A stretch of 20,000 bases of DNA, taken from the IMG/VR virus record IMGVR_UViG_3300035034_001389; one strand, written 5' to 3'. Under the pieces are notes generated by a model. That model was not told the origin of the DNA. It made no database searches and saw only the letters and a list, made by a program, of their open reading frames with translations. The translations under genes and the position numbers were made by a program. The DNA is from an uncultured virus (IMG/VR IMGVR_UViG_3300035034_001389). Its lineage: Duplodnaviria > Heunggongvirae > Uroviricota > Caudoviricetes. Each line of letters starts with the position of its first letter. The stretch's first letter is position 1. Of the stretch, positions 1 to 19,908 are shown piece after piece.

Positions 1-753
1 GATGGTGACTTCACAGAGAAGGTACCACATGACCCTGATTATTTCTTCCACGGTGAAGAAATATCTATAGCAGTTAGAGCATTCACACATGGATATGATC
101 TATTTCACCCCCACAAAGTTGTGGCTTGGCATGAATATACACGAAAGGGTAGAACTAAAGTCTGGGATGATCACACAACAACTAGTAAGAATGATGGTAA
201 TATCAAGCTAGATTGGGTTGAACGTAATAATCTTTGCCATAAGAGAAACCGAATACTATTTGGCATGGATGGTGAAGACCCAGCACAAATTGACTTTGGT
301 AAATTTGGATTTGGTGATGTTAGAACTGTCAGAGAATATGAAGAATATGCTGGCATTAGTTTTGAATACCGTGGTGTACAACAGCCAACATTGGATAGGA
401 AAGACCCACCCAACAATATCCCATATGATAATGAGAAACAGTGGAAGGTATTGTTTGCACGTTCTAATGATGTACACATATGCCTACATAAAAATGAATT
501 AATTGAGAGTGGTGAAGAACTATTGGATGATTATGACTTTTTCTATGTCGGTACACATGATGAAAATGGTGACGAAATACATCGGAAAGACATTACTAAA
601 GATGAAATATACCAATATATAAATAGTGATAACGGTTTCGTTGATTATCGACTAATTTTTCTTTCGACTAAACGCCCAACACATTACACGGTATGGGTAC
701 ATAGTGAAAGTAAAGAATGGATGAAAAAAATAACTAAGCCTATTGACTATTAG
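1..753 (+). CDS. GT60-like polypeptide/hydroxyproline N-acetylglucosaminyltransferase (GlcNAc family), 5'-truncated by the window edge
   Basis: Frame 1 is open from base 1: DGDFTEKVPHDPDYFFHGEEISIAVRAFTHGYDLFHPHKVVAWHEYTRKGR. This matches the VPxDP..F.GEE....R..T.GYD..P....H.Y signature of Gnt1/GT60-type enzymes. The GTG start at 121 in the ORF track is internal. TAG stop at 751-753. Confidence 0.75.
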   Translation, partial: DGDFTEKVPHDPDYFFHGEEISIAVRAFTHGYDLFHPHKVVAWHEYTRKGRTKVWDDHTTTSKNDGNIKLDWVERNNLCHKRNRILFGMDGEDPAQIDFGKFGFGDVRTVREYEEYAGISFEYRGVQQPTLDRKDPPNNIPYDNEKQWKVLFARSNDVHICLHKNELIESGEELLDDYDFFYVGTHDENGDEIHRKDITKDEIYQYINSDNGFVDYRLIFLSTKRPTHYTVWVHSESKEWMKKITKPIDY

Positions 754-761
754 GTGAAAAC

Positions 762-3080
762 ATGAAAAATGAATTAATAATAGCAAGTTATGGTTCCCAT
801 AATGCCGCTGTTGCAATGTTCTATAAAGGCACGTATACTGTAATTGAGGTAGAACGCTGGTTAAGTAAAAAAAATGCTGGCTTAATAACATACTTGCCAG
901 CATCAAATCCTAATATTATATTGGAAGAAATCACTGAGTTTTTACTTTCTAAAACTGATAGAAGTGAAGTAGATTTATATTTAACAAACTATGGTGATTT
1001 GTCAAAACTGAAACCATCCTTTAATTATGTTAAGAGTTTAACGTTTGATCACCATGAAGCACACGCAGCATGTGCATTTTATCAATCCCCTTTCGATAAA
1101 GCATTAACCTTCACATTTGATGGTGGTGGTGATGCCGGTTATTTTAATGTATACATGACAGATCGACAAAATGGCGTCACATTACTTAATAAATTTAACC
1201 AAGATTTAGGATTTGCATATATGATTCTTGGTGATCACCTTGATGAAATTACACGTGACCCACTAAACATTGGCAATCTTGTTTATGCCGGTAAACTAAT
1301 GGGACTGTGTTCATATGGAAATATTCGAGATGAATGGATTCCACACTTTACTGAATTCTATGAAACATTTACATATAGTGGGGACTCATACCTTGGTGGT
1401 GCAGAAGCAGCTAAAGATGCTCTCCCAAAATTGATGGAAGCCATACAGGTTAAGAATTATACTAAGGATACTAGAATAAGTGGTCAGATGTCATGGGACA
1501 TTGCGGCAACAACACAACATGTATTTGAAGAACAATTTTTTAAATTTGCACAACCTTATTTTGATCAATATCCAGATATCCCAGTGACCTTAGCTGGAGG
1601 GTGTGCATTGAATGTTATATTGAATACTAGAATATTAAGGGAACGTGGTAAGAATGTTTTTATACCACCTAACACCAGTGACTGTGGTATAGCTGTGGGT
1701 GGAATATTACTTAATCAGAAGCCAGAGTATCAGGTTGATTTAACATATGCAGGTGCGCCCGTTTTAGATGAACATATGTTCTCATCATATATTGAAAATG
1801 GCATGTTTAGTGTAGTGGAAGATGTATCTATTGAAAGTTTAGCTAACTATATAAACAATGGTCATATTGTAGGTATTATTAATGGGAACTCGGAACATGG
1901 CCCAAGAGCACTAGGCAATAGAAGTATAATATGTAATCCAGTTGGCGATATGAAAAACATACTTAATGATAAAGTTAAAAATAGAGAATGGTATAGACCA
2001 TTTGCACCATTAGTTCGTCTAGAGGACGCACCAACATATTTTGATTTCCCAGAAGGTGCACAATCTCGACATATGACGTATGTTGCTGAAGTACGAGAAG
2101 AATATAGAGATATTATACCAGCCGTAACACACGAAGATAATACTGGTAGATTGCAGACTGTGACCCGCCAGCAGAATAGCTTTATATATGATCTATTAAC
2201 CGAATTTGATAAGGTTTCTGATCATAGTGTATTATTGAACACATCATTCAATGTCAATGGAAAACCAATTTTGACCAGAATATCAGAAGCTCTTGAAATA
2301 TTAGAAACTTCAAAACTTGATGCCGTATTTTACAAGAACCGTCTAATATTTAGAAGGGGTGAAGAGAAAAAATTCGAGAAAAAATCAATCAATATTAACA
2401 TCAAGCCATTATCAAATGAAACTACTGTAAATATATTTGTAACACCCACAAATAATGATAATTTATTATCAGCATACATACCGAAGATTTCTAAAATTTG
2501 TCAAGATTCTAAAGTTGTATTGATAATAGAAGAGAAATATATTAAATATTGTCAACTTGCATTGTCTGACTTTGAAGTTGAGTATTTTCCCATTAATATA
2601 ACCAGCTTTTACTATCATGAATTAGTTCAAAAAAGTTTACCCAATTTAAATATGGTGATGTCTGAATATCTAAATATTATACGAATGTTGTGGGCCAAAA
2701 ATGTAATGCTTGAGAATTTACATAGAACACAAAATCACATATTTGTAACTTTAGGAAATGTTATGTATTCAATGGATATTGTTAATGATATTAAAACTAT
2801 ATCCGAAGCATGTAAAGAGGGTGATCAAATTATTACTACCTCTAGAACATACACAGGATCACCAGCAGAGGACATACTTGGCAAGCATCACATTGGTAAG
2901 GTTCCTACCAAAATCCCATCTATGGACATTGTAGCAGGCCATATATCACAGATAGATTGGTTATGTACAAACATAGAGGCACATCTACTGAGCATGTTAC
3001 GTTCTGGGGGGGTGTCATCAGATTATGATTATGTTGTGGTTCCTTTCATGGAAAGTAATCATAAGTTCAGGTTAATATAA
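762..3080 (+). CDS. NodU/CmcH/TobZ-family O-carbamoyltransferase with a C-terminal degenerate HtrL-like domain
   Basis: Motifs GSHNAA, EVERW, DHHEAHAACAF, FDGGGD, AGKLMGLCSYG, LAGGCALNV, SDCGIAVG, EHGPRALGNRSI, VKNREWYRPFAP, PAVTHEDNTGRLQTV and LLNTSFNVNGKPI cover both carbamoyltransferase domains. About 230 extra residues follow. Confidence 0.92.
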   Translation: MKNELIIASYGSHNAAVAMFYKGTYTVIEVERWLSKKNAGLITYLPASNPNIILEEITEFLLSKTDRSEVDLYLTNYGDLSKLKPSFNYVKSLTFDHHEAHAACAFYQSPFDKALTFTFDGGGDAGYFNVYMTDRQNGVTLLNKFNQDLGFAYMILGDHLDEITRDPLNIGNLVYAGKLMGLCSYGNIRDEWIPHFTEFYETFTYSGDSYLGGAEAAKDALPKLMEAIQVKNYTKDTRISGQMSWDIAATTQHVFEEQFFKFAQPYFDQYPDIPVTLAGGCALNVILNTRILRERGKNVFIPPNTSDCGIAVGGILLNQKPEYQVDLTYAGAPVLDEHMFSSYIENGMFSVVEDVSIESLANYINNGHIVGIINGNSEHGPRALGNRSIICNPVGDMKNILNDKVKNREWYRPFAPLVRLEDAPTYFDFPEGAQSRHMTYVAEVREEYRDIIPAVTHEDNTGRLQTVTRQQNSFIYDLLTEFDKVSDHSVLLNTSFNVNGKPILTRISEALEILETSKLDAVFYKNRLIFRRGEEKKFEKKSININIKPLSNETTVNIFVTPTNNDNLLSAYIPKISKICQDSKVVLIIEEKYIKYCQLALSDFEVEYFPINITSFYYHELVQKSLPNLNMVMSEYLNIIRMLWAKNVMLENLHRTQNHIFVTLGNVMYSMDIVNDIKTISEACKEGDQIITTSRTYTGSPAEDILGKHHIGKVPTKIPSMDIVAGHISQIDWLCTNIEAHLLSMLRSGGVSSDYDYVVVPFMESNHKFRLI

Positions 3081-4027
3081 TGAATATATCATTTGTAACA
3101 TCGGTATATGATGATTTATCTAATACTAAATTTGCTGGTAGACATAATCGGGGCACCCAGTATGCATTTTCGTTGGCTCAGATGCAACACATGGGTGTCC
3201 CAATTTATATCTTTACTGATAAGCGCAATATACAAAAGAACCTTCCAGCAATTTACAGCCATAGTTTAGATAATGCTAAATTCATAAACTATGAACTAGA
3301 TAAATATCCACTCTATAATGATATACAAAAAATTAAAGATAGTAACCCCGAAGTATATAGAAATGAAGCAGGGTGGTCAAGTCGGTGTGTTGAAATAATG
3401 TGGAGTAAATTTGATTTAGTTGAACATATTATTAATAAAGTTGGAATATCTGAAGATAATTTTGTATTTTGGATAGATGCTGGATTATCACATCCCGGAG
3501 TATTACCATACAAATATAATTCCATATATAACCCCGAAATGGAATATCCAAATCAATCAAAGGAATATCATGATGGTTTTTATTTTGACCAAATTTTTAA
3601 TAATGAATTTCCAGAGTATCTAGCAAATTATATAGGTAAAAATAAAATATTCCACATGATGTGTAATTCACCACAGCATAATGACCCATCTTTTATGGGT
3701 AATATTGAAACTGTAAAAACTGGCACGGTTGTGGGTGGATTATTTGGTGGAACTACTAATGTATTATTAGACTGGGTGCTTGAAGGTAAGGATATTTGTC
3801 AGCAATTAGTAGACCATAATCAATTGGTTAAAGAAGAAGACATATTGAGTTATATGGTAAACAAGCATATGGTGGAAGATGAATCGTTTATTGATGAAAA
3901 AATAAAACTTTATTTATTCGATACATGGTATCATGAAGATTGGTTAAAAAATTGGGATAAAACATTATATGACCCCAACACTGCAATATCATTTTCAGAT
4001 TTTTTTAAAGAATTCACAGGTAGATAA
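3080..4027 (+). CDS. HtrL/YibB-like putative glycosyltransferase
   Basis: N-terminal ISFVTSVYD, then IMWSKFDLV, FWIDAGL, VVGGLFGG and KEEDILS. Clearly paralogous to the N-terminal half of the next ORF. Coupled to the upstream gene by a TAATG stop/start overlap at 3078-3082. Confidence 0.65.
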   Translation: MNISFVTSVYDDLSNTKFAGRHNRGTQYAFSLAQMQHMGVPIYIFTDKRNIQKNLPAIYSHSLDNAKFINYELDKYPLYNDIQKIKDSNPEVYRNEAGWSSRCVEIMWSKFDLVEHIINKVGISEDNFVFWIDAGLSHPGVLPYKYNSIYNPEMEYPNQSKEYHDGFYFDQIFNNEFPEYLANYIGKNKIFHMMCNSPQHNDPSFMGNIETVKTGTVVGGLFGGTTNVLLDWVLEGKDICQQLVDHNQLVKEEDILSYMVNKHMVEDESFIDEKIKLYLFDTWYHEDWLKNWDKTLYDPNTAISFSDFFKEFTGR

Positions 4028-4056
4028 TTAAAATAAATAGATTTAAAGGTATTTAA

Positions 4057-5697
4057 ATGAACAACGATTTAACATTAGTTACAGCACTATTTGATATTAA
4101 ACGAGGTGATCTTAACCCCGGTTTCGCTAGAGGGTTCGATCATTATATTGAAACATTCAGACGCTTATTGAAGACGGAATTACCTATGGTTATATTCTGT
4201 GATAAAGAAGTTGAAAAGATAGTGTGGGAGGAAAGAATTCCAGATAATACTAGAATTGTATCTAAGACCCTTGCTGACTTAAAAAACTTTCCATTTTATG
4301 AACAGACTAATGAAATACGCAATCAACCTGAATGGAAAAATAGAAGTGGTTGGATTACAGATAGTCCACAATCGGAACTAGAGTTATATAACCCATTAGT
4401 TATGAGTAAACAATTCTTTTTGAATGATGCATCAATATTTAATTTCTTCGAAACTAAGTATTTTTTATGGATGGATGCGGGAATAGCTAACACGATTGGT
4501 GACCCATGTGCATATATGAATTTTGACTTTGCTAAAAAAATAACAGAACATATGCAGAGAATGATGTATGTGTGTTTCCCATATGATGGTGAAGTAGAAG
4601 TACATGGGTTTGAAAAAGAAGAATTTGATAAAATTGCAGGGTGTAAAACTGATAGAGTTGCCAGAGGTGGAATGTTTGGTGGTCCAGCCCATGTTATTCG
4701 TGAGATTAACGACATATATTATCAACTACTTGGAAATACGTTAAACTCTGGATATATGGGAACCGAAGAAAGTATTTTTACCTTGATAACATATCAGCGT
4801 CCAGACCTTTGTAATATTGTCAACATTGATAATAATGGTCTAATAATTAAGGCATTAAATGATATTCAAAATGACACTAAAGTATATACTCAAGAAAAGT
4901 TAGCTATATATGCCCTTACCTACAACCTACCTCAACAATTTGAACATTGGGTGAAATCATTTGTATCTGCATTTCCCAAGGAATTTGAAAGTATGAAAAA
5001 GTATGTAATTAATAATTCCAATGATCCAAAAGTTGATGCAACATATAAAGAATTGTTTGAACAATATGGATTTGAAGAATTCAAGTTTGACAATGTAGGT
5101 ATAAATGGTGGTAGACAATTTGCCGCAGAGCATTTTGATGCAAGTGATCATCAGTATATGGTATTCTTCGAAGATGACATGCTAATGCATCAGCCCAATG
5201 CAGGTCCATGCAAATCAGGATTCACAACATATCACCCTGAAATATTTGATAAGTGTATGGAAATCATGGCAACTGAAAAGCTTGATTATTTGAAAATGTG
5301 TTTTAGTGAATTTTATGGTGTTAATCATCATAACTGGGCATGGTTTAATGTACCACCTAGCAAAAAAGAATTATATTTCCCTGAACAGTCTGATACAGAA
5401 ATACGCCACCACACCAATATTAAGAGAACTAATACACTAAGAGGATTACCCTATGCTGTAGGAGAGTACCATTATTGTAATTGGCCACTAATGTTTAACA
5501 AGAGTGGAAGCTTTAAGGTATTTCTAGAAGATAAATATGAGCATCTATATGAACAGACATGGATGAGTCATACGATGAATCTTATACATGATAGGCGTAT
5601 AAATCCGGGATGCCTTTTAGCCTCAACTATTAATCATGACAGAAAGTTTCATTATGATGGTGACACACGCCGGGAGAATGAACACTATACTAATTAA
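4057..5697 (+). CDS. Two-domain putative glycosyltransferase: HtrL/YibB-like N-terminal domain plus GT-A (GT2-like) C-terminal domain
   Basis: N half: LTLVTALFDIKR, YNPLVMSKQFFL, FLWMDAGI, VARGGMFGG, MGTEESIFT. C half: YVINNSND, DNVGINGGRQFA, YMVFFEDDM (acidic DxD-like motif). Confidence 0.7.
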   Translation: MNNDLTLVTALFDIKRGDLNPGFARGFDHYIETFRRLLKTELPMVIFCDKEVEKIVWEERIPDNTRIVSKTLADLKNFPFYEQTNEIRNQPEWKNRSGWITDSPQSELELYNPLVMSKQFFLNDASIFNFFETKYFLWMDAGIANTIGDPCAYMNFDFAKKITEHMQRMMYVCFPYDGEVEVHGFEKEEFDKIAGCKTDRVARGGMFGGPAHVIREINDIYYQLLGNTLNSGYMGTEESIFTLITYQRPDLCNIVNIDNNGLIIKALNDIQNDTKVYTQEKLAIYALTYNLPQQFEHWVKSFVSAFPKEFESMKKYVINNSNDPKVDATYKELFEQYGFEEFKFDNVGINGGRQFAAEHFDASDHQYMVFFEDDMLMHQPNAGPCKSGFTTYHPEIFDKCMEIMATEKLDYLKMCFSEFYGVNHHNWAWFNVPPSKKELYFPEQSDTEIRHHTNIKRTNTLRGLPYAVGEYHYCNWPLMFNKSGSFKVFLEDKYEHLYEQTWMSHTMNLIHDRRINPGCLLASTINHDRKFHYDGDTRRENEHYTN

Positions 5698-6251
5698 ACT
5701 GATGGTGATGGTGTAGGTGTAGGTGTTACTGTTGGAGTAGCACTCTGTGTCAACTCTGGCTCTGATACTGTAACGGATGCTGTTAATGTTGGTGTAAGTG
5801 CTGGTGCTGTAAAGCACCCACCACCAGCCTGTATATTAAGATCAGGCTCTGGAATGGCATTCGGTGAATCAACCCTCTGCTCAATTTGCAACGCAACCCA
5901 TGATGTTTTAAATATTTCTTCAAATTTCGATTTTGTAGAAAAAGCATCCTTAAGTATTTCAAAGAATATATAATTAACGTCTTCTCTTCTAAATGTCTCA
6001 TATATCAAATTCATTGTGGTTATAATATCATTGGGTGTATTGAAATTCAGATTGTTATTCACAAATGCATCAATATCTACACCATCAAATTCCCTATTAG
6101 GTGAATTCAATATTGCAGTAATTGTTGATTTGGCAAGAGTAGGGTCAACAAATATCTGATCTGGACCTAGCCCATATCTAGTATCTGTACCATATTTTTC
6201 ATCATATAATGATCGCTCTAATGATGGCAATAATTTTGTTCTATCTGTCAT
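5694..6251 (-). CDS. Hypothetical protein, probably virion-associated, with a C-terminal Thr/Pro-rich tail
   Basis: 185 aa ORF, last gene of the - strand block. Ends in TAPALTPTLTASVTVSEPELTQSATPTVTPTPTPSPSV. Its stop overlaps the stop of the convergent gene. Confidence 0.7.
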   Translation of the reverse strand: MTDRTKLLPSLERSLYDEKYGTDTRYGLGPDQIFVDPTLAKSTITAILNSPNREFDGVDIDAFVNNNLNFNTPNDIITTMNLIYETFRREDVNYIFFEILKDAFSTKSKFEEIFKTSWVALQIEQRVDSPNAIPEPDLNIQAGGGCFTAPALTPTLTASVTVSEPELTQSATPTVTPTPTPSPSV

Positions 6252-6255
6252 TTCA

Positions 6256-7518
6256 TTATACCGTATCGTTTAGTATTATTTCTTGTGATATACACTCACC
6301 AGCCGAAACTGTTATAGAGTATGTTATTTTAATTCTACTTGTTGAATCTTTACTTTTTTCTGGAAATATTATATGTGTTAATAATCTCTCTCGTTCTTCG
6401 GTTGAATCATTAGAATTATTCACTATACCCCTATCATCACCACCTTTAATGTTACTATTTACATTCAACCAATCATGCCTAGCTAAGAAATAAATTAGAT
6501 TTTCTGAACCTAAAACTGTTTCTTCTTCTGGAAACGATATAGTTGACTGTGAACCAGTTGATTTACTTTGCACCGAAAAAAATCCTCTAGAATCCAAATT
6601 ATTAATAGATGGATATAATGCGGTTCCCGTATCAGATATAAAGAATAGTGCTCCACTATCACCACTAAAATCAAATGGACTTGCAGAATCTAACCATGCA
6701 CCAGTATTAATACCTTCACATAAATCACCATATGTAAACGCACCAGCCACACCAGTACCAGTACCAGCAGGTGGTGTTGTAATTAATGAATTAACCCTAA
6801 CACCATTTAACACTACAGGTATGGAAAATCGAGTACCACCGGGTAATGAAACAAACACATCACCCAATGGATTATCAACTAGACCCACTATCTGCGAATA
6901 TGAAGTTTTTATTATATTATCACCATCGGCCAGTAATCCTTCTTTATTAAGTTCAATATCTATCGATGAAATACCAGATGTACTTAATGCTGGTGCACCA
7001 GAACTATAAATGCCAACTTCATCAAATGTGAATGTTCTACTATCACCAAGTGGCTCTTCATCATTTATTACCATATCAATGATGACCTCAGATAATACAC
7101 CATTTTCACGAGAATATAACCCATCAGTTGGTTCGTCCCTAAATGCATAATCACCACCGTTAACTCTAACATTATCTAAACCAGAAGAACCTTCATCCAC
7201 GCCATAATTAGGTAATGAACTGTCAATTACTTCTGAATATATTTCATTATATAGTCTGGATTCCCACCCACGAGAATCATTAAATCCATTGTTGACCTGA
7301 CGTTCAACAACTTCACCACCATTAAGAAAGGTGCCACCATTTCCAAAAGCTAAACGATAGAATGATGAATTAGGTTCATTGGCTAATCCTCTAGAAATTA
7401 TTCTTGCAATATTTTGTGGATGTATTGCATTATAATCATCTAGTAGAATCTCACCAGTTGTGAGGTCTACGATCTTAACATGTCCCTCGAAATTAAATGA
7501 TTGAAAAATATTTTTCAT
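6256..7518 (-). CDS. Putative virion structural (baseplate/tail-associated) protein of large phages
   Basis: Blocks EGHVKIVD..TGEILLD.YNAIH, LAFGNGGT, FTFDEVGIYS and RLLTHIIF...KITYSITV resemble conserved structural proteins of large myophages. A Gly-rich middle segment lies between the last two blocks. Confidence 0.6.
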   Translation of the reverse strand: MKNIFQSFNFEGHVKIVDLTTGEILLDDYNAIHPQNIARIISRGLANEPNSSFYRLAFGNGGTFLNGGEVVERQVNNGFNDSRGWESRLYNEIYSEVIDSSLPNYGVDEGSSGLDNVRVNGGDYAFRDEPTDGLYSRENGVLSEVIIDMVINDEEPLGDSRTFTFDEVGIYSSGAPALSTSGISSIDIELNKEGLLADGDNIIKTSYSQIVGLVDNPLGDVFVSLPGGTRFSIPVVLNGVRVNSLITTPPAGTGTGVAGAFTYGDLCEGINTGAWLDSASPFDFSGDSGALFFISDTGTALYPSINNLDSRGFFSVQSKSTGSQSTISFPEEETVLGSENLIYFLARHDWLNVNSNIKGGDDRGIVNNSNDSTEERERLLTHIIFPEKSKDSTSRIKITYSITVSAGECISQEIILNDTV

Positions 7519-7531
7519 AGTATTATATTTA

Positions 7532-8608
7532 TTATGGTGCAGTGACCAAATTATCCCCTGTAAGCTGTTCTATTCTAGGATACGTCGATTCTATATTTGA
7601 ACTATCTAAGTAAATTGCTCCCGATATAATATAAAATCGACCTATATTTGTATTTGGTAAAGTTCCAATATCTACTAATTTATTTCTCACCTTATCTATA
7701 ACACCATATGGGGTTTCAGAATATAATAAGAATACCTGTCTAGGTTCGATTGGAATTAAATTCCCAATATATCCAGATGTTGTATTTTGATACTGAATTC
7801 CAAGTATCCGAAATGATGTATTTTCGGGTATATCAGCTAATGATGTAATATTAGGAAAGGCATCAGTCATGAAATCCAAAACATTTATATTTTTAGTTGA
7901 AAAACTTCTTCTTTTCCTTATTAATACTTGATCCCAACCCAACCAAGGTGATGATGACGGTAAAACATCTAACATATATTCACCCTCAATACCTTTTACT
8001 GGATTTGATGGTATTTGAATTTCTAAATCTATTGTGAAATTATCTTCATTCATATATTCTATTGTATTATTATCCCGCTCAATAATGGTGGGTATGGCAA
8101 ACACCATATTTCCATCATTTGATATATTAACTAATCCTTCAGGTGTAATGATACTTTGAATGTTTGCGGGAACACTAGATCGGGAAACTAAATGTATGAT
8201 CCCACGCTGTTGAGTTTCGAATGATATTTCTAAATTATTTGAATCTATTATACTTATGGTATATGAATCTGGTGATGCCTCAATGGGAACTCCACCAGTA
8301 CTTTCTATAAGATATACGGTTTCTGCTGGAGAAACCCCCAAATTGTGTTGTATTTTCCATTTACGTGAACTAATATTGATATCCTTAGCAAAAAATGCTC
8401 TTCTTGGAACATAATCTTCTAAACCCGCAACGGGAGGCGGAAAATCACCATCTTGCCGTACTACATTCTCATTCCTAACAATCTTATATAATTTACCCTT
8501 GCATCCATTAGTTATTATACATTTTGAAAACACCGTCATACCAGAAGCATTTTCAGCTAATGATATTTCTCGTTTACATGTGTCACAGTTATATTTAATA
8601 GTTGCCAT
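7532..8608 (-). CDS. Putative virion structural protein with an N-terminal 4-Cys motif
   Basis: ATG at 8608 (track start is TTG 8611). N-terminus has CDTC...CIITNGC. WKIQHNLGVSP...IIDSNNLEISF resembles a small beta module recurrent in phage tail proteins. Confidence 0.55.
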   Translation of the reverse strand: MATIKYNCDTCKREISLAENASGMTVFSKCIITNGCKGKLYKIVRNENVVRQDGDFPPPVAGLEDYVPRRAFFAKDINISSRKWKIQHNLGVSPAETVYLIESTGGVPIEASPDSYTISIIDSNNLEISFETQQRGIIHLVSRSSVPANIQSIITPEGLVNISNDGNMVFAIPTIIERDNNTIEYMNEDNFTIDLEIQIPSNPVKGIEGEYMLDVLPSSSPWLGWDQVLIRKRRSFSTKNINVLDFMTDAFPNITSLADIPENTSFRILGIQYQNTTSGYIGNLIPIEPRQVFLLYSETPYGVIDKVRNKLVDIGTLPNTNIGRFYIISGAIYLDSSNIESTYPRIEQLTGDNLVTAP

Positions 8609-8666
8609 CAATAATATCCAATTATATACTATTTATGGTAACATCCAATGGTTGGATATTAAGATA

Positions 8667-8957
8667 TTACTTAAGTGCTATTTTTTGAATGTGCTCAATA
8701 AGGTCTTCAGCTTCATTGATATTATCTTCAGCAAAACATCTGGGGCCACATCTAAGATCATGAAGAATCCAAGCGAATGATGTCTGGAATTTATGTATTG
8801 ATGTTCCACGAGAATTTTCACCGATACGCTCTTTTATAGCACGATTACTATCACGCTTTTTAAGTGCATCACGATAGGCATCACATGCATCTTCGAATGA
8901 CACTGTGAGTTTTGCGATATTTGTTTCTATTTCATTTATTGTATATTTAATTTTCAT
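8667..8957 (-). CDS. Hypothetical protein (helical, basic)
   Basis: Fills the gap in the - strand block. ATG at 8957 lies just after the upstream stop; alternative ATG at 8975. Confidence 0.6.
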   Translation of the reverse strand: MKIKYTINEIETNIAKLTVSFEDACDAYRDALKKRDSNRAIKERIGENSRGTSIHKFQTSFAWILHDLRCGPRCFAEDNINEAEDLIEHIQKIALK

Positions 8958-8959
8958 AA

Positions 8960-9631
8960 TTAATCTTGTTTCCAATATTTAGCTAAATTCGAATTTATTG
9001 TATGTGGTTTTGGTTTTCCATGAAAGCACACTATTTTTGCATCCTTGGGTAGAATAATATCACCTCCTACTTTACAATGTACCTTATATGATACTATTTG
9101 TTTTGGGTATGAATCCTGAAGAAATTCTTTTGGGTGGTGGAATTGCTGGCTAATATATGATTGATCACCACCTACTTCGTAAAGTTTCATAAATCTATTA
9201 GGATTACTCTTAAACATTTCATATATTTCGGTCATTGGATTTTTCCAATATAAAAGACCACTAGCAAAACTTTCCAGATTATAGAAATCTTGCAATCCCG
9301 AGAATTTTAAGGATTTTCTAGATAAATATTCATCAATATTATCAACAACAAATGTATCTAAATCGAAAAAGAATTTCGGAGTGTCATTATCCTCATGTAG
9401 ATCAGGGCGAAATAATTCGACTTTACCCCACCATTTTGGCCAATCATGGTTAAATAATACGATTTCATCGACATATTTATTGGATATACCACTTGGATCG
9501 TTTGTTAAACATACAATATTAGTATCAATTGAGGTGTTTTTCTTTATAGCCTCTGCTATGTTATTAACATACTTATAATCATATTCCCCACCAGTTCGTA
9601 AAACTAGGAATATCTTAGGGATTACATTCAT
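8960..9631 (-). CDS. GT-A fold, GT8-like glycosyltransferase
   Basis: FFFDLDTFVVDNID (DxD), GGDQSYI, IVCFHGKPKP. AGGAG Shine-Dalgarno precedes ATG 9631, which overlaps the upstream TGA. Confidence 0.75.
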   Translation of the reverse strand: MNVIPKIFLVLRTGGEYDYKYVNNIAEAIKKNTSIDTNIVCLTNDPSGISNKYVDEIVLFNHDWPKWWGKVELFRPDLHEDNDTPKFFFDLDTFVVDNIDEYLSRKSLKFSGLQDFYNLESFASGLLYWKNPMTEIYEMFKSNPNRFMKLYEVGGDQSYISQQFHHPKEFLQDSYPKQIVSYKVHCKVGGDIILPKDAKIVCFHGKPKPHTINSNLAKYWKQD

Positions 9632-10308
9632 CACTTCTCCTTTATAAAATCTCTATAGTCACAAAAATTAAAACACCTAACCGCACTGTCAGGGTTTGCA
9701 TTATATATATTTACACTTTTACCGGACTCCTTATACTCTTTTGCAAATTTGTTTATGGATGGTAAGAATAAAGTGGAATATACATCATCCGGTATGTGTG
9801 GTCGATATTCATCATGGTAATGAGTTCTCCCGGTATCACCTCTTCGCATATCATATCCTAATAATATAACATTAGATGGTGACATATTAACTACAAAATT
9901 TAAAGCCTGAACACCACTATTATTTCCACATACCGTATCGAAGTCAGGAGCATATCCAAAGTCACTTATTCTTTTTAGAATTATAGTATTCCCTAAAGTC
10001 CTTGGATCATTTTTAATATCATAATTAATATGAGATGCTGTTTTTGATGTAAATATATCCATATCCGTGTATTCTTTAAGTTTTTCATAACGCTCTGACA
10101 TCCATGTATCATCAACCCAATATAGCCCGACTGGTGTAATGATATCCATATATGAATCATTGATACAAAATACTAATTCATTCTGTAATAGGCTAAAATC
10201 AACCATTGATGATATACTGTCACCACCACCAACCATAAACACGGTCTTACCCTTAATTTTGTTCATAAAGTGTTGCAAAGATGGTCGCATAATGTTAAAA
10301 TACCTCAA
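9631..10308 (-). CDS. Maf/MptE-like (DUF115-type) protein, possible nucleotide-sugar-dependent transferase
   Basis: KGKTVFMVGGGDSI, VFCINDSY, GNNSGVQALNFVV, VILLGYDM, THYH and IYNANPDSAVRCF follow the G.GPS / NSG..A / I.L.G.D pattern. Start is TTG 10308 or ATG 10290. Confidence 0.6.
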   Translation of the reverse strand: MRYFNIMRPSLQHFMNKIKGKTVFMVGGGDSISSMVDFSLLQNELVFCINDSYMDIITPVGLYWVDDTWMSERYEKLKEYTDMDIFTSKTASHINYDIKNDPRTLGNTIILKRISDFGYAPDFDTVCGNNSGVQALNFVVNMSPSNVILLGYDMRRGDTGRTHYHDEYRPHIPDDVYSTLFLPSINKFAKEYKESGKSVNIYNANPDSAVRCFNFCDYRDFIKEK

Positions 10309-10324
10309 AACGGTTATATAATAA

Positions 10325-10855
10325 ATGGTAAATGAAATAAAAATAAATATCAGAAAAGAATGTCAGGATTTCCTTTCAGAGTCTAATGGTAACCCTATAC
10401 TTAAATGTCTCCCATCTGATGGTCATGATTCACGTAAGATTAAACTACGTAAACGAAAAACCAAAAATAAAATAGATAGTATATTCAATAATGTATTTAT
10501 AGAAACTCCTGACATACGACAACGTTCACTATATGTGCAGGGTATTAATAAAAATATTTTTGAAAATGATCATGACTTATTTTATGTTTTCCCTATAGAT
10601 GGATATAAATTTATATATAGTCCCGAAGTCAAAGATGCCAATGAATATGATCAGACACTAGAAACATTATTCCAGCATCATGATAATGACTATGCCATCG
10701 GAATGATTAAATCCGTTATCGGATATGACTATATCACAGAAGGTCTTAGTGACGCAATAGATAAAGATTGTGAGATACTATTTTATGGTATTCCATACTA
10801 TTATGCCGTTCGAGCATCAACCGTAAATAGTTACTCAACTCTATTTTCCTTATAA
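10325..10855 (+). CDS. Hypothetical phage protein
   Basis: 176 aa ORF with ATG start, divergent from the - strand block. Contains RQRSLY, FYVFPIDGYKFIYSPEVKD and CEILF. Function not assignable. Confidence 0.7.
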   Translation: MVNEIKINIRKECQDFLSESNGNPILKCLPSDGHDSRKIKLRKRKTKNKIDSIFNNVFIETPDIRQRSLYVQGINKNIFENDHDLFYVFPIDGYKFIYSPEVKDANEYDQTLETLFQHHDNDYAIGMIKSVIGYDYITEGLSDAIDKDCEILFYGIPYYYAVRASTVNSYSTLFSL

Positions 10856-10955
10856 TTTATAATAGGAATATAAGCTGTTGATTTTAAACCATAAGAATAT
10901 AGAAGTAATAATAATAGTAAATAATTCTCACATTAATGGAGTTCAATAATAATAT

Positions 10956-12428
10956 ATGGAATCAAATAACGCAAAGAAGTCAGAAAGTATAAAGATTGTT
11001 AAAAGAGATGGTGAGGTGGAATTTTTTGATATTGAAAAAATCCACAAGATGGTAGAAATTGCATGTGAAGATATTACTGGCGTTTTTGTATCAGATATTG
11101 AAATGGAGGCACATTTATCATTTTATGATGGAATGTCATCGGTAGATATCCATCGGGCATTGATAAAATCAGCAGCAAATTTAATATCTGAATCTACGCC
11201 CAACTATCAATTCCCCGCAGGTAGATTACTAATGTTCGATATGCGTAAGACCGCGTGGGGTGGTATGGAACCACCTAGATTATATGACCACATTATCAAA
11301 ATGGTTGAAAATAGGTATTATACCGAAGACCTACTAGACTATTACACTGAAGAAGAATGGGATAAAATGGATTCCTTTATAGATCATGATCGGGATTTAA
11401 AACTTGCTCATATTTCAGTTAAGGAATACATGACTAAATATGCAATTCGTGATAGATCATTGAATGGTGTTGAACCTCTTGAAACTCCACAATTAACATA
11501 TATGTTAATTTCATCATTGATGTGTTCCACTACTAGAAGTTTAAAAGAAATTAAATCATATTATAATGATATATCTCAAGGTAATATTAGTTTACCAACG
11601 CCAATTATGGCAGGTATGCGAACAAGAACTAAGCAATTTAGCTCATGTGTACTAATTGAGGCCGATGATACCTTAAACTCTATTGAGCAATCAAATGTAG
11701 CCATACAGGAGTATATCTCTAAGAAGGCTGGCATTGGTATAGGGGCATCAGCAATACGCGAAGCAGGTGCATCAGTAGCCGATAAGAGCATTAAACATAC
11801 CGGAGTTATACCATACTTTAAACAATATCAAGGAACCGTCAAAAGCTGCTCACAAGGTGGTGTGAGGGGTGGTGCTGCTACAGTATACGTATTGTTGTGG
11901 CATCCTGAAATAGAAGATATTTTGGTTCTTAAAAATAATAAAGGAACACAAGATAATCGAGTTAGGCAGTTAGATTATGCCATTATTATGAATGACTTTA
12001 TGTGTGATCTATTAGCCAAGCAGGGTGAAATTAATTTATTTTCACCACATGAAACTAGAGATATGTATCTTGCATATTTTAGTGATCCTGCAAAATTTGA
12101 AAGACTATATAAAAAGTATAGCAAGGCAGGGATGGCAAAGGGGACAGTATCAGCATTAGACCTATATGAATCATTTATGGGTGAACGTAAAGAAACTGGT
12201 AGAATATATAGTATGTTTATTGATAATGTTAACTCACACTCATCATTTATAGACCCAATCAGAATGAGTAATCTTTGTGTGGAAATAACATTGATAACAA
12301 ATCCAATGGGGTCAACTGAAAAATATACTATAACTGTAGATTTCGACAAATTAATTGAAACTGTCAATGACCTTGGTGGAAGTGATATAGTTAAAGGTTT
12401 TAAAATACTAAATAGGAGTGAATTATAA
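10956..12428 (+). CDS. nrdA: Class Ia ribonucleotide reductase alpha subunit, N-terminal fragment (NrdA-a)
   Basis: ATP-cone start IVKRDG, SLPTPIMAG, QFSSCVLI (E. coli C225 equivalent), SQGGVRGGAA and SNLCVEI (N437/C439/E441 equivalents; Cys codon 12276-12278). Ends 49 codons after this Cys. Confidence 0.95.
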   Translation: MESNNAKKSESIKIVKRDGEVEFFDIEKIHKMVEIACEDITGVFVSDIEMEAHLSFYDGMSSVDIHRALIKSAANLISESTPNYQFPAGRLLMFDMRKTAWGGMEPPRLYDHIIKMVENRYYTEDLLDYYTEEEWDKMDSFIDHDRDLKLAHISVKEYMTKYAIRDRSLNGVEPLETPQLTYMLISSLMCSTTRSLKEIKSYYNDISQGNISLPTPIMAGMRTRTKQFSSCVLIEADDTLNSIEQSNVAIQEYISKKAGIGIGASAIREAGASVADKSIKHTGVIPYFKQYQGTVKSCSQGGVRGGAATVYVLLWHPEIEDILVLKNNKGTQDNRVRQLDYAIIMNDFMCDLLAKQGEINLFSPHETRDMYLAYFSDPAKFERLYKKYSKAGMAKGTVSALDLYESFMGERKETGRIYSMFIDNVNSHSSFIDPIRMSNLCVEITLITNPMGSTEKYTITVDFDKLIETVNDLGGSDIVKGFKILNRSEL

Positions 12429-13483
12429 TGCCAAAATATACAGACTTTAGGGCGCTTAAAGAAAATCCAGAAAATAAGGACTCTTATATAATTGAAGTTG
12501 AAGAAGATACTTCCAGAATTGCATTATGCACGTTATCTGCAATCAATCTTGGTAATATTAAATCAATGGATGATATTGAAGGATGGATGCGTAATGCTGT
12601 CCGAGGATTGGACACACTGCTTGATTATCAGAATTATCTATTACCAGCAGCCAGAGAAGCCACACTGGACTATAGACCATTAGGTATAGGCATAATTAAC
12701 CTAGCGTATTATTTTGCAAAAAATAATGTAACATATGATGATCCCCGTGCACATGAACTTATACATGAAGTTATGGAAGCTATTCAATTTTACGGAATTA
12801 AGGCATCAGTTGAACTTGCAAAGGAACGTGGACCATGTAGATTATTTTCAAGAACAAAATATGCTCAAGGGTTACTCCCAATTGACCACTATAAGAAGAC
12901 AGTGGATGAGATTGTTAAACCTGAATATAACTTAGATTGGGAATGGTTACGTGCCGAAGTATTAGAACATGGAATGCGTAATGCCACCATCACAGCAGTT
13001 ATGCCAGCAGAAACAAGTGCAAAAATTGTGAACGCTACCAACGGTGTGGAACCTGTACGATCATTAGTTACAGTTAAGGGTAATAAATCTAACATATCAA
13101 AACAGGTAGTACCTGAAATTAATCGACTTAAGCGAAAGTACGATATGTTGTGGGATATGGAAAGTATGTCTGGAATAATTATGACAATGGCAACTATTCA
13201 AAAATTTGTTGACCAAAGTATTTCAACAAACCTATCATACAATCCAAATCATTTCCCTGAAGGTAAAGTTTCAATGGAAACAATGTTGCGCGATTTACTA
13301 CTATGTAACAAGTATGGAATAAAAACACTATATTATCACAATACCCCAGATGGCAGAGATGATGATCTACAGGATGTATCCGAAATGAAAATAGTGGGTG
13401 ATATAGTAACAAAAGCATTTGAAAATGATACCGAATCTGATCAGCTTGATGATCAAGAAGATTGTGATTCATGTTCAATATAA
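12428..13483 (+). CDS. nrdA: Class Ia ribonucleotide reductase alpha subunit, C-terminal fragment (NrdA-b)
   Basis: IALCTLSAINLG (C462 equivalent, Cys34), RPLGIGI, GMRNAT..AVMPAETS, NATNGVEP, DQSISTN, KTLYY (Y730/Y731 equivalents) and C-terminal CDSC. Has its own SD, AGGAG at 12414-12418. Confidence 0.95.
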   Translation: MPKYTDFRALKENPENKDSYIIEVEEDTSRIALCTLSAINLGNIKSMDDIEGWMRNAVRGLDTLLDYQNYLLPAAREATLDYRPLGIGIINLAYYFAKNNVTYDDPRAHELIHEVMEAIQFYGIKASVELAKERGPCRLFSRTKYAQGLLPIDHYKKTVDEIVKPEYNLDWEWLRAEVLEHGMRNATITAVMPAETSAKIVNATNGVEPVRSLVTVKGNKSNISKQVVPEINRLKRKYDMLWDMESMSGIIMTMATIQKFVDQSISTNLSYNPNHFPEGKVSMETMLRDLLLCNKYGIKTLYYHNTPDGRDDDLQDVSEMKIVGDIVTKAFENDTESDQLDDQEDCDSCSI

Positions 13484-13506
13484 TATTAATAACAGGGAAA
13501 TAATTT

Positions 13507-14640
13507 ATGTCAATGAAAGCGTTTAACCCAAATCCAAATGTGGATTTTACTAAACAATATATGTTTTTTGGTGAACAACCAAACGTAGCACGATATGATG
13601 TGCAGAGATTCGAAATATTCGAAAAAATTATACAGAAACATTTAGGGTATTTTTGGACCCCTGAAGAAGTTAATATCAGTAAAGATTCATATGACTTTAA
13701 GCAATTAGCCGATCATGAGAAATTTATTTTTATTGAAAATTTAAGCTATCAGACATTATTGGATAGTGTTCAGGGTCGTTCACCCAATCTTGCATTACTA
13801 CCACATGTATCATTACCCGAACTAGAAACTTTAATTGAAACATGGAGTTTTTCTGAAACTATTCACAGTAGAAGCTATACATATATTCTCAGAAATATAT
13901 TAACCAATCCATCAATTATCTTCGATAATATCATGAAAAATGAAAAAATTATGGATCGTGCTAATGCAGTGACATCATATTATGATGATCTTATGCAATA
14001 TTCTAACATGTTTCAAACCTTTGGTGAAGGTAAACATAAACTTGCTGGTAAAACATATAATCTTTCATTACGTGAATTGAAAAGAAAACTACTACTATGT
14101 GTAGCATCAATTAACATATTAGAGGGGATTCGTTTTTATGCATCGTTCGCATGTTCGTTCGCATTCGCAGAAAATGATCTAATGGAAGGTAATGCTAAAA
14201 TTATTGGCCTTATTGCACGTGATGAAACACTACATTTGGCAATCACTCAAAATATTTTGAAGAAGTGGTCTAATGGTGACGATGATCCTGTCATGCAAGA
14301 ATTATTCAATGAAGAAATTGGAACAATTACTGAAATGTATTACACCGCAGTTATGCAAGAAAAAGATTGGTCTTCACATTTATTTCGTGATGGGTCTATG
14401 ATGGGTCTCAATGATCGAATATTAAATGAATTTGTTGAATATATTGCTGGTAAACGTATGAGGGCAATTGGTATCAAAAATGAATATAGTAAAAAGAATC
14501 CTATTAGCTGGATAGATAAACATTTAGTATCATCTGATAACCAAGTGGCACCACAGGAAACTGAAATAATTTCGTATATTGTTGGTGGTGTTGTTCATGA
14601 TGTCAATGAAAACAGCTTTTCCAACATATCATTAGATTAA
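13507..14640 (+). CDS. nrdB: Class Ia ribonucleotide reductase beta subunit
   Basis: FWTPEEV, LDSVQGR, ETIHSRSY (radical Tyr), LEGIRFYASFACSFAF, IARDETLH, APQETEIISY. Confidence 0.97.
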   Translation: MSMKAFNPNPNVDFTKQYMFFGEQPNVARYDVQRFEIFEKIIQKHLGYFWTPEEVNISKDSYDFKQLADHEKFIFIENLSYQTLLDSVQGRSPNLALLPHVSLPELETLIETWSFSETIHSRSYTYILRNILTNPSIIFDNIMKNEKIMDRANAVTSYYDDLMQYSNMFQTFGEGKHKLAGKTYNLSLRELKRKLLLCVASINILEGIRFYASFACSFAFAENDLMEGNAKIIGLIARDETLHLAITQNILKKWSNGDDDPVMQELFNEEIGTITEMYYTAVMQEKDWSSHLFRDGSMMGLNDRILNEFVEYIAGKRMRAIGIKNEYSKKNPISWIDKHLVSSDNQVAPQETEIISYIVGGVVHDVNENSFSNISLD

Positions 14641-14684
14641 TATTTTTCTCTTGTATAATAAATACTTAAAAATGGATATTATTT

Positions 14685-15281
14685 ATGAAAGAATCTTTTA
14701 AAGAGTTTTACACCAATGCTAAATCTTCTAAGTTAGAAGAAAACTATGGTATACGTGCACAGATAACTGAGAATGTAAATTCGCAGGAGGGTATATTTAA
14801 TAATATATATCGTGTACATTCTGATAAGTTTATAGAACTTATACATGAAGCCAGAAAGATGATGGAAGATGGTGTTATAGAATTTGATGATGGTGATAAG
14901 GATATTCTTGAAAGTGATTTAGGTCAATATGTTGAATTTGAAGATACTATGGTTCCATTAGATTGCCCTATGGTTGATAATGAGATTGATGAGGCCGAAT
15001 ATCAGGGTGATGATGTTGAATTAAATAGTCCCAAGCGTGGTGGACCTAAAAAGTACTATGTTTATGTAAAGAATTCAAAAGGAAATGTGGTTAAAGTAAA
15101 TTTTGGTGATTCTGGTGATCTTAAATCTAAAATAAATGATCCTGAAGCTAGAAAGAATTTCGCATCACGCCATAAGTGTAGTGAGAAAAAAGATAAAACA
15201 ACTCCGGGTTACTGGTCATGTAACCTTCCAAGATATGCAAAGCAATTAGGATTATCGGGTGGTGGAAACTATTACTGGTAA
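14685..15281 (+). CDS. Hypothetical phage protein (acidic N half, basic Cys/Trp-containing C domain)
   Basis: 198 aa ORF. C-terminal KKYYVYVK...VKVNFGD...ARKNFASRHKC...PGYWSC pattern resembles uncharacterised large-virus proteins. Confidence 0.75.
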   Translation: MKESFKEFYTNAKSSKLEENYGIRAQITENVNSQEGIFNNIYRVHSDKFIELIHEARKMMEDGVIEFDDGDKDILESDLGQYVEFEDTMVPLDCPMVDNEIDEAEYQGDDVELNSPKRGGPKKYYVYVKNSKGNVVKVNFGDSGDLKSKINDPEARKNFASRHKCSEKKDKTTPGYWSCNLPRYAKQLGLSGGGNYYW

Positions 15282-19557: not shown

Positions 19558-19908
19558 ATGAACTTAAACAAACGATCTTCACAGTCAAGCCTAACACCAT
19601 CAGATGTTCTAGATATTCGACGTTTGGTATCTGAAGGTAATACTCAGACATCTACAGCTAGTCGCTTTAATATTACACGTAAAGCGGTATATGATATTAT
19701 CAATGGTAATAGCTGGTCAGATATTCCTAATCCGGTTACATTACGAGGTTATTCAAATTATCAGATTTATCCTGATGGTCGAGTTTTTTCAAATAACTCT
19801 GGTAACTTTATGAAGCGTAAATCAACCTCTAGTGTTCGATTACGTGACAACAAAGGAACACAGAAAACAGTCGCAATTAATGATTTAATGCGAAAGGCAT
19901 TTAAGTAA
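19558..19908 (+). CDS. HTH + NUMOD4-like DNA-binding protein lacking an HNH nuclease domain
   Basis: SLTPSDVLDIR...TASRFNITRKAVYDIINGNSW is the HTH type seen at the C-terminus of phage HNH endonucleases. GYSNYQIYPDGRVFS...VRLRD...INDLMRKAF is NUMOD4-like. SD AGGAGA at 19542-19547. Confidence 0.7.
   Translation: MNLNKRSSQSSLTPSDVLDIRRLVSEGNTQTSTASRFNITRKAVYDIINGNSWSDIPNPVTLRGYSNYQIYPDGRVFSNNSGNFMKRKSTSSVRLRDNKGTQKTVAINDLMRKAFK

Follow-up and report, generated by a model that had tools for sequence, protein, structure and literature searches.

The window, that is, the whole stretch of DNA analysed here, comprises 20,000 nucleotides (nt) of an uncultured lake virus of the Caudoviricetes (IMG/VR record IMGVR_UViG_3300035034_001389) and is phage-like and AT-rich (33.6% GC). 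Central to this study is its nrdA, the gene for the alpha subunit of class Ia ribonucleotide reductase (RNR), which appears on the + strand as two open reading frames (ORFs), nrdA-a at 10956-12428 (490 amino acids) and nrdA-b at 12428-13483 (351 amino acids). Pfam assigns to nrdA-a the ATP-cone (PF03477), the all-alpha domain (PF00317) and positions 1-221 of the barrel profile PF02867, and to nrdA-b positions 219-523 of the same profile, so that one barrel domain is divided between both ORFs. The first barrel half and the finger-loop motif SNLCVE lie in NrdA-a and the second half in NrdA-b.

The catalytic residues are divided along with the barrel. NrdA-a holds C231 (in FSSCVLIE), N439, C441 and E443 (in SNLCVE), the equivalents of C225, N437, C439 and E441 of E. 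coli, and NrdA-b holds C34 (in IALCTL; equivalent to C462), Y302-Y303 (in LYYHN; equivalent to Y730/Y731) and, at the C-terminus, C346-x-x-C349 (CDSC), the equivalences being drawn from motif position and from the numbering used in PMC3045599. All four residues of the first group are invariant in the 27 rows of the NrdA-a family alignment, as are C34, Y302, Y303, C346 and C349 in the 30 rows for NrdA-b. An earlier note on this DNA had distributed them between the ORFs in the same way. The same note had counted 49 + 33 = 82 residues between the equivalents of C439 and C462 versus 22 in E. coli (439 to 462), and the count is correct. Directly downstream, 23 nt after nrdA-b, lies nrdB for the small subunit (13507-14640, + strand, 377 amino acids, PF00268). 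With the domains, the catalytic and radical-transfer residues, the C-terminal cysteine pair and an NrdB partner gene all present, the two ORFs are, judged by sequence, the two halves of a class Ia NrdA.

The junction between the halves is compact. The stop codon of nrdA-a (TAA, 12426-12428) and the start codon of nrdA-b (ATG, 12428-12430) share one nucleotide in a TAATG overlap (12426-12430, + strand), and a Shine-Dalgarno-like AGGAG lies within the 3' end of nrdA-a (12414-12418, + strand) with a spacer of 9 nt to the ATG, exactly as the earlier note had it; GGAG-like sites stand at equal spacing in relatives. The frame of nrdA-b is +2 relative to nrdA-a, and in the window 4 nt only are open in both frames. 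No terminator-like site was found on the + strand in 10200-14900, thus none between nrdA-a and nrdA-b or between the latter and nrdB, and promoter-like sites were not above chance (37 found versus 31.4 +/- 5.4 expected).

It is evident from relatives that this arrangement is not peculiar to one contig. Protein searches were made with NrdA-a (8000 candidates scored, best 120 listed) and with NrdA-b (best 120 of 2024 matches listed), both against 90%-identity clusters. Among the best 120 listed for NrdA-a, 27 clusters (P0001-P0027; 482-498 amino acids, 62-72% identity to the window) are split forms, all of which end in the same kind of C-terminal tail (C-tail); among the best 120 listed for NrdA-b, 31 clusters (P0121-P0151) begin with the same kind of N-terminal tail (N-tail), 30 of which entered the family alignment, the truncated P0150 being omitted. 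Junctions were examined in 15 loci from viral and metagenomic contigs, a set that lies outside the partial or distant loci of the range L023-L029 (L026 is listed among the 1-nt overlaps below). Two of the 15 do not bear on the split, namely L021, an unsplit insert-bearing gene, and L018, whose sequence opens just 75 nt upstream of nrdA-b and hence does not reach the end of nrdA-a. In each of the 13 loci holding both genes, the window included, the two-gene split is present, at ~70-80% protein identity and with eight distinct junction sequences, three geometries and two frame relations; such recurrence lies far beyond chance. The 1-nt TAATG overlap is seen in the window, L012, L017, L019, L020 and L026, a 2-nt gap in L001, L002, L014 and L015, and a 14-nt overlap in L013, L016 and L022; every one of these junctions has an ATG or GTG start with a GGAG-like site upstream, and, taking nrdA-a as the reference, nrdA-b is read in frame +2 at 10 loci and in frame +1 at three. 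None of the 13 junctions contains an intervening ORF or space for one; the earlier note, too, had seen no intervening mobile element in the window.

An assembly or sequencing indel, or a decaying pseudogene, could in principle produce such a pair, especially as the sole contig spanning the window junction may come from the source sample. Against this stands the recurrence of the same split in 13 of 13 loci with eight junction sequences, three geometries and two frames, which rules out assembly error for the clade, together with the invariant catalytic residues and the conserved tails, and we regard an error or decay at the window itself as next to negligible. The suggestion that nrdA-b is a real second gene and not a frameshift artefact is thereby upheld, and the split is, on the comparative sequence evidence, real and evolutionarily fixed in the clade.

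A better understanding of the tails comes from unsplit relatives. The unsplit NrdAs among the best 120 listed fall into proteins of 760-790 amino acids, with an E. coli-like loop, and proteins of 805-820 amino acids, such as that of Xanthomonas phage Xoo-sp13 (P0092), with 46-50 extra residues between the motifs P-M-G and D-x-S-x-I-A-L-C. The profile of the 27 C-tails matches that of 32 such inserts over 44 colinear columns (hhalign Prob 93.9, E 1.6e-7), and the C-tail of the window scores 21.1 bits against the hidden Markov model of the insert, a value reached by none of 2000 shuffles. In the alignment the window C-tail (NrdA-a residues 452-485; 12309-12410, + strand) falls on the first part of the insert, corresponding to its strand 1, helix and strand 2, and the segment SYIIEVEED of NrdA-b (residues 19-27; 12482-12508, + strand) falls on the last part, in place of strand 3, from where it runs directly into the barrel strand holding C34. 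The C-tail is therefore homologous to and colinear with the insert of unsplit phage NrdAs as far as sequence can tell, and the tails are mostly pre-existing insert. The earlier note had called both tails novel. For the C-tail this does not hold, given the hhalign and shuffle results, and for the N-tail it holds in part: the first ~16-18 residues have no counterpart in unsplit inserts, and the last ~10 stand in place of insert strand 3, an assignment made because they adjoin the conserved D-x-S-R-I-A-L-C.

What is new at the cut amounts to ~21 residues, that is, the C-terminal extension NRSEL of NrdA-a (residues 486-490; 12411-12425, + strand) and the ~16-18 residues beginning MPKYTDFRAL, with which the N-terminal peptide of NrdA-b opens (residues 1-18, MPKYTDFRALKENPENKD; 12428-12481, + strand). 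The family consensus of the latter is M-x-x-Y-N-D-F-R-D-L, with D6, F7 and R8 invariant, and residues 1-10 have a mean pairwise identity of 76% versus 82% for the NrdA-b core. The linker that follows (residues 11-19) is at 33%, strand 3 at 53% and the NrdA-a tail at 54%, with Y457, S476, D477, V479 and F482 invariant, and the last 5-10 residues of NrdA-a, which vary in length and include NRSEL, are at 20%. These patterns of sequence conservation indicate that the tails are under constraint. Both are acidic, with net charges of -2 and -3 in the window and family means of -3.9 and -4.1. A search of representatives with a 50-residue query, aimed at fused forms that hold the N-terminal peptide, gave a lone match, P0241, which proved to be a repeat protein and spurious; as a negative this is weak evidence.

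Could the two ORFs nevertheless yield a single polypeptide, through programmed frameshifting, bypassing, RNA splicing or protein trans-splicing? Phage genes use such devices, as in the bypassing of T4 gene 60 and the split inteins of metagenomic nrdA, and relatives of the window nrdA carry split inteins at C439. However, the differing frames of nrdA-b among the loci and the mere 4 nt open in both frames in the window make a conserved recoding device very unlikely, and the C-terminal end of NrdA-a varies in both length and sequence. Further, Rfam reports no intron or other RNA family in 10000-15000 and Pfam no intein in either ORF. Comparison of the tail and insert profiles with the intein halves of relatives gave a best match of Prob 7.5 and E 0.0047 over 14 non-colinear columns, which is not significant. 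The probability of a single product is, in our estimate, very small. The Pfam and hhalign results likewise leave the idea of the tails as intein remnants unsupported, and an intron-split gene was rejected on the lack of any gap between the ORFs and the empty Rfam search. Overall, no trace of an endonuclease, intein or intron was found at the nrdA junction in the clade junctions, Pfam or Rfam.

One of the closest known systems is that of the 'fractured genes', in which split inteins divide metagenomic nrdA and a free-standing endonuclease gene lies between its halves (Dassa et al. 2009, PMC2677866; PMC3653736). They resemble the window in that a metagenomic phage nrdA lies in pieces near the catalytic cysteine, and among the relatives recovered here a split-intein arrangement at C439 occurs in P0029, P0079, P0113, P0115, P0154-P0173 and L038. 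In contrast, the window has no intein motifs, no nucleophile at either junction and no endonuclease. The product must stay two chains.

The fold of the insert was approached through an AlphaFold2 model of the unsplit protein P0048 (mean predicted local distance difference test score, pLDDT, 80.2; blocks at the insert 87-93). In this model the insert forms a strand (451-459), a helix (460-472), a second strand (476-484) and a third (488-496), after which the barrel strand with the cysteine follows, and by alignment the cut of the split forms maps to the turn at 485-487 that separates strands 2 and 3. The segments KYTITVDF and SYIIEVEE, described as beta-like in the earlier note, match the modelled strands 1 and 3. 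Solved structures leave the insert uncovered: the best match, 8vhp, is unmatched at query residues 451-491, and query residue 450 is also where the first matched segment ends in the remaining 13 of the closest solved NrdAs. The finger loop connects the two five-stranded halves of the RNR barrel, according to the passages of Burnim et al. 2022 (PMC9669993) that were consulted, and the cut hence lies at that seam. Homology together with the model of the homolog places it between the finger loop and the next barrel strand, in the turn predicted to join strands 2 and 3 of the insert.

A complex model of NrdA-a with NrdA-b scored 0.92, versus 0.35 for the best control; the mark set for this score is reached by 116 of 157 solved complexes and by two of 215 mismatched pairs. 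At least 87% of the contacts agree between runs, and the pLDDT of the partner is at least 83. The confident interface comprises NrdA-a 441-463 and 476-485 and NrdA-b 6-8, 10-11, 13-15 and 18-40. Both tails thus take part in it, as expected from the idea that they form a heterodimerisation domain, although intact NrdA structures have been solved and the pass may reflect memory of these, so that the model shows likeness and not binding.

Taken together, we consider it likely that the window encodes a functional, evolutionarily fixed two-polypeptide class Ia NrdA of an uncultured phage, whose halves dock via parts of the insert. [quoted passage not shown] The halves would associate through the native intra-subunit interface of the barrel, NrdA-a contributing strand 1, the helix and strand 2 of the mini-domain and NrdA-b placing strand 3 beside strand 2, such that the mini-domain may be rebuilt by strand complementation. 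The Y-N-D-F-R-D-L peptide at the N-terminus of NrdA-b could act as an extra clamp on NrdA-a, and the heterodimer would then behave as one alpha subunit in an (alpha-a/alpha-b)2 beta2 enzyme, as measured for Aeromonas phage Aeh1. As to origin, fission may have occurred within a pre-existing insert, or recombination may have brought in a tail cassette, either without a homing endonuclease or with one that has since disappeared.

Several observations weigh against this proposal. The window junction is backed by assembled contigs and not at read level: one Logan contig spans it, with no differences and a depth of ~8, and may be the source sample, and three other runs hold pieces of 151-156 nt, none with 31 nt on both sides of 12428. 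The identical copy of the window junction on another contig, L012, may not be independent, and the runs listed for the window DNA include no RNA dataset. The fold of the insert is that of a modelled homolog at ~56% identity and not of the two proteins encoded in the window. At the end of the N-tail, the final 10 residues taken by themselves align weakly to strand 3 (hhalign E 0.053; 26 of 2000 shuffles score as high). Moreover, the window tails depart from several near-invariant positions of the consensus, carrying T5 instead of N, A9 instead of D, T460 instead of Y and D462 instead of P.

The comparison with Aeh1 is instructive on many counts. Its record (NC_005260) lists nrdA-A (473 amino acids), mobE (714 nt, overlapping nrdA-B) and nrdA-B (323 amino acids), and its Cys-431 and Cys-31 lie in the first and second protein, respectively (Crona et al. 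2011, PMC3045599). According to that paper, the Aeh1 NrdA-a/NrdA-b enzyme is fully active, its tails are essential for activity and for dimerisation of the heterodimers, and the tails are proposed to have come with mobE. The window shares with Aeh1 a cut between the C439 and C462 equivalents, as the earlier note had recognised and as the alignment, NC_005260 and PMC3045599 bear out, as well as an active site built from two separately translated polypeptides, a tail at the C-terminus of the first half and another at the N-terminus of the second, and nrdB directly downstream.

The differences are equally clear. The gap in Aeh1 is filled by the mobE homing endonuclease gene, whereas the window has a 1-nt overlap without endonuclease and all 13 junctions of its clade are tight. 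The Aeh1 tails are oppositely charged (+6 and -8), and those of the window are both acidic; pairing of a basic with an acidic tail, as in Aeh1, was considered and does not apply. The host genes are 46% identical. While the window C-tail is homologous to the insert, that of Aeh1 is not detectably like it (138 of 2000 shuffles as high, hhalign E 0.12), and only the ~21 residues at the cut of the window are absent from unsplit NrdAs, in contrast to the unique tails expected of the Aeh1 type. The last ~11 residues of the Aeh1 N-tail weakly resemble strand 3 of the window family (hhalign E 3.2e-4, 11 columns, six of 2000 shuffles). The split is common to a whole clade in the window's case and known from one phage in the case of Aeh1. 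The closest relatives of Aeh1 match its NrdA-a only to residue 88-90 of a 120-residue query, where the tail begins, and phage Ah1, a close relative, has an unsplit nrdA of 2235 nt. Nearer to the window stand the NrdAs of Xoo-sp13, XacN1 and P0048, which are the same enzyme at 55-60% identity and carry the same strand-helix-strand-strand module at the same position between equal flanks, P-M-G before and D-x-S-x-I-A-L-C after. These proteins, however, are single chains of 805-820 amino acids, in which a three-residue hairpin takes the place of the stop, the start and the ~21 extra residues of the window.

Given the precedent of Aeh1, which shows that the mechanism exists, a homing endonuclease gene may have invaded the loop, divided nrdA and supplied or given rise to the tails, and may later have been deleted cleanly to leave the coupled pair; the earlier note, too, had taken any invading element to have been lost. 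Mobile elements abound in the RNR genes of these phages, as in L001, L002, L014 and L015, where nrdA-a holds a HINT split and a 294-residue ORF, and in L038 and L006, where an ORF stands between split-intein halves; the ~21 residues without counterpart in unsplit inserts, the rejection of a single clade for split forms and the signs of cassette exchange described below fit such a history too. On the other hand, none of the 13 clade junctions has an intervening ORF or room for one, the pre-existing insert accounts for most of the tail sequence without need of an invader, and the GC fraction of the tail-coding stretch (0.295) is low and yet no outlier, eight of 94 segments of 200 nt in the gene being as low. 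We therefore hold a lost endonuclease to be possible, though somewhat doubtful, as the source of this split.

The evolution of the split and of the insert was followed on a quick LG+G4 tree built from the region that precedes the insert, with 118 rows made up of 116 of the 120 listed matches, Aeh1 and Aswh_1; P0028, P0063, P0076 and P0102 were dropped as fragments or for want of the motif. The window clade comprises 28 rows, namely 27 split forms and P0029, with a support of 99 in the Shimodaira-Hasegawa-like approximate likelihood ratio test (SH-aLRT). The comparison with related nrdA genes for which the earlier note had called shows this clade split, with no endonuclease between the halves, in 13 of 13 loci, and intact, intein-split and otherwise split forms among the other relatives. 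The label 'split' requires at least six changes on the tree and the presence of the insert at least 13, seven of them forced by starred branches. Forcing the 31 split rows other than Aeh1, a group named after the tree was seen, into one clade costs 785 log-likelihood units and is rejected (P value of the approximately unbiased test, p-AU, 3e-70). In the phage collection, DNA and protein searches returned no close relative of the window, the best protein match being Xanthomonas phage XacN1 (56%, unsplit). As a separate observation, P0029 has an N-terminal split-intein half at C439 instead of the tail ending.

Further split types, in which the first half likewise ends after strand 2, are P0057, P0091 and P0117/P0118; P0153 and P0162/P0164/P0168 are candidate partners, matched on the equal length of their longest contigs, as for P0118 and P0168. 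P0152 starts before strand 2, and the cut there appears to fall between the helix and strand 2. Scans of viral contigs with P0168 and with the tail of P0091 yielded no genes other than unsplit or intein-split ones, and a search of the phage collection with P0203, another split type, only unsplit jumbo-phage NrdAs.

The insert itself comes and goes. The pairs P0042/P0046 versus P0051, P0032 versus P0033 and P0036 versus P0040 show clean presence or absence of a 40-42 residue insert, the flanks on either side of it being 84-100% identical in segments of 50 columns. Similar hosts carry inserts of very different sequence. P0091, a split form, and P0081, an unsplit one with the insert, share 98-100% identity across most of the N-part and 18% in the tail or insert. 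A DNA scan with P0042 found one locus only above 60% identity. From the clean pairs and the contrast of P0091 with P0081 it follows that the module is gained, lost and exchanged, and it behaves like an exchangeable cassette.

These findings invite two further readings. One reverses the direction, such that the insert of 46-50 residues is the healed scar of two re-fused tails and the split form is the older state of the module. The clean presence or absence of the insert between otherwise near-identical proteins, its many changes on the tree and the great differences among inserts of otherwise similar hosts would fit. However, the insert is modelled as a compact, confident mini-domain with a tight three-residue hairpin, unlike two joined tails, and the extra residues at the cut of split forms are absent from unsplit ones. 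A fused form with Y-N-D-F-R-D-L was not found at E <= 0.001 with NrdA-b 1-45 as query among proteins of 616-2000 amino acids, which is weak evidence. We consider this reversal quite improbable. In the other reading, which is speculative and in our view unlikely, the insert would be a mobile in-frame cassette cycling between states, cleanly gained and lost among near-identical nrdA genes and passed from lineage to lineage, and a preferred break site of nrdA, with or without an endonuclease and with re-fusion possible. The tails of Aeh1 and of the clade would then be versions of a single module that recurs and enables phages to tolerate endonuclease attack on the DNA coding for the loop, or to resist it.

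Overall, the window encodes a genuine, conserved and endonuclease-free two-gene NrdA of the Aeh1 'genes-in-pieces' kind, the tails of which would be the parts of a mini-domain plus one new conserved peptide. Apart from the intein-split metagenomic genes, Aeh1 is the only split class Ia NrdA in the literature searched, and it is presented there as a one-off rescue of an endonuclease insertion by tails arriving with the element. The clade described here indicates that a split through the active site of NrdA can be a stable trait of a whole lineage without a mobile element, and that tails for docking need not be new charged peptides and can derive from an ordinary small domain divided in two at a hairpin. 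Cuts in this insert appear to have arisen in several host lineages and at more than one position. Strand complementation at the seam of the barrel halves is a concrete, testable model of the way in which an essential enzyme may survive fission, and could also supply a natural pair of small docking tags. Whether the Aeh1 tails share ancestry with those of this clade is a question raised by this locus.

Among other RNR classes, Thermus phage phiYS40 has nrdJ-a and nrdJ-b 12 nt apart (PMC3653736). The split class II NrdJa/NrdJb, in the passages of PMC9669993 consulted, resembles the window in that two RNR genes lie side by side without an intervening mobile element, and an additional folded piece has been proposed to aid the interaction of the chains. 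It differs in class and in that NrdJa keeps the whole catalytic barrel, with the active site undivided. The same passages contain no description of an insert in the loop.

Mobile elements in the RNR genes of relatives take varied forms. In L001 (1187-5086), and likewise in L002, L014 and L015, nrdA is in three pieces: an N-part of 320 amino acids that ends 16 residues past the K-S-C of the KSCSQGG motif, a 294-residue ORF with Pfam DUF7487 (GIY-YIG-like by eye only), and a 382-residue ORF that comprises a HINT/intein domain (residues 62-193) and then the remainder of NrdA-a with its usual tail, 2 nt after which NrdA-b starts. The arrangement resembles an intein split in an atypical way, its N part being short and its C part long, added to the tail-type split. 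Split-intein nrdA genes were also seen in L038 (1466-4939), with the intein at the C439 site and a middle ORF of 234 amino acids, and in L006 (1728-5809), with the intein near the C-terminal part and a middle ORF of 433 amino acids.

Upstream of the RNR genes, the window carries a sugar-modifying gene cluster at 121-10308, with glycosyltransferases, a Nol-like carbamoyltransferase (772 amino acids) and a sialyltransferase-like ORF. Directly before nrdA-a lies an ORF of 176 amino acids (10325-10855) whose sole family match is one weak PHROG of unknown function; by eye, its N-terminus resembles those of the ORFs upstream of nrdA in L003, L006 and L037. Finally, an ORF of 116 amino acids at 19558-19908, which stands ~6 kb downstream of nrdA, weakly matches HNH endonucleases in PHROG (E ~2e-8) and, again weakly, helix-turn-helix entries in Pfam, and may be a free-standing endonuclease or a remnant of one.

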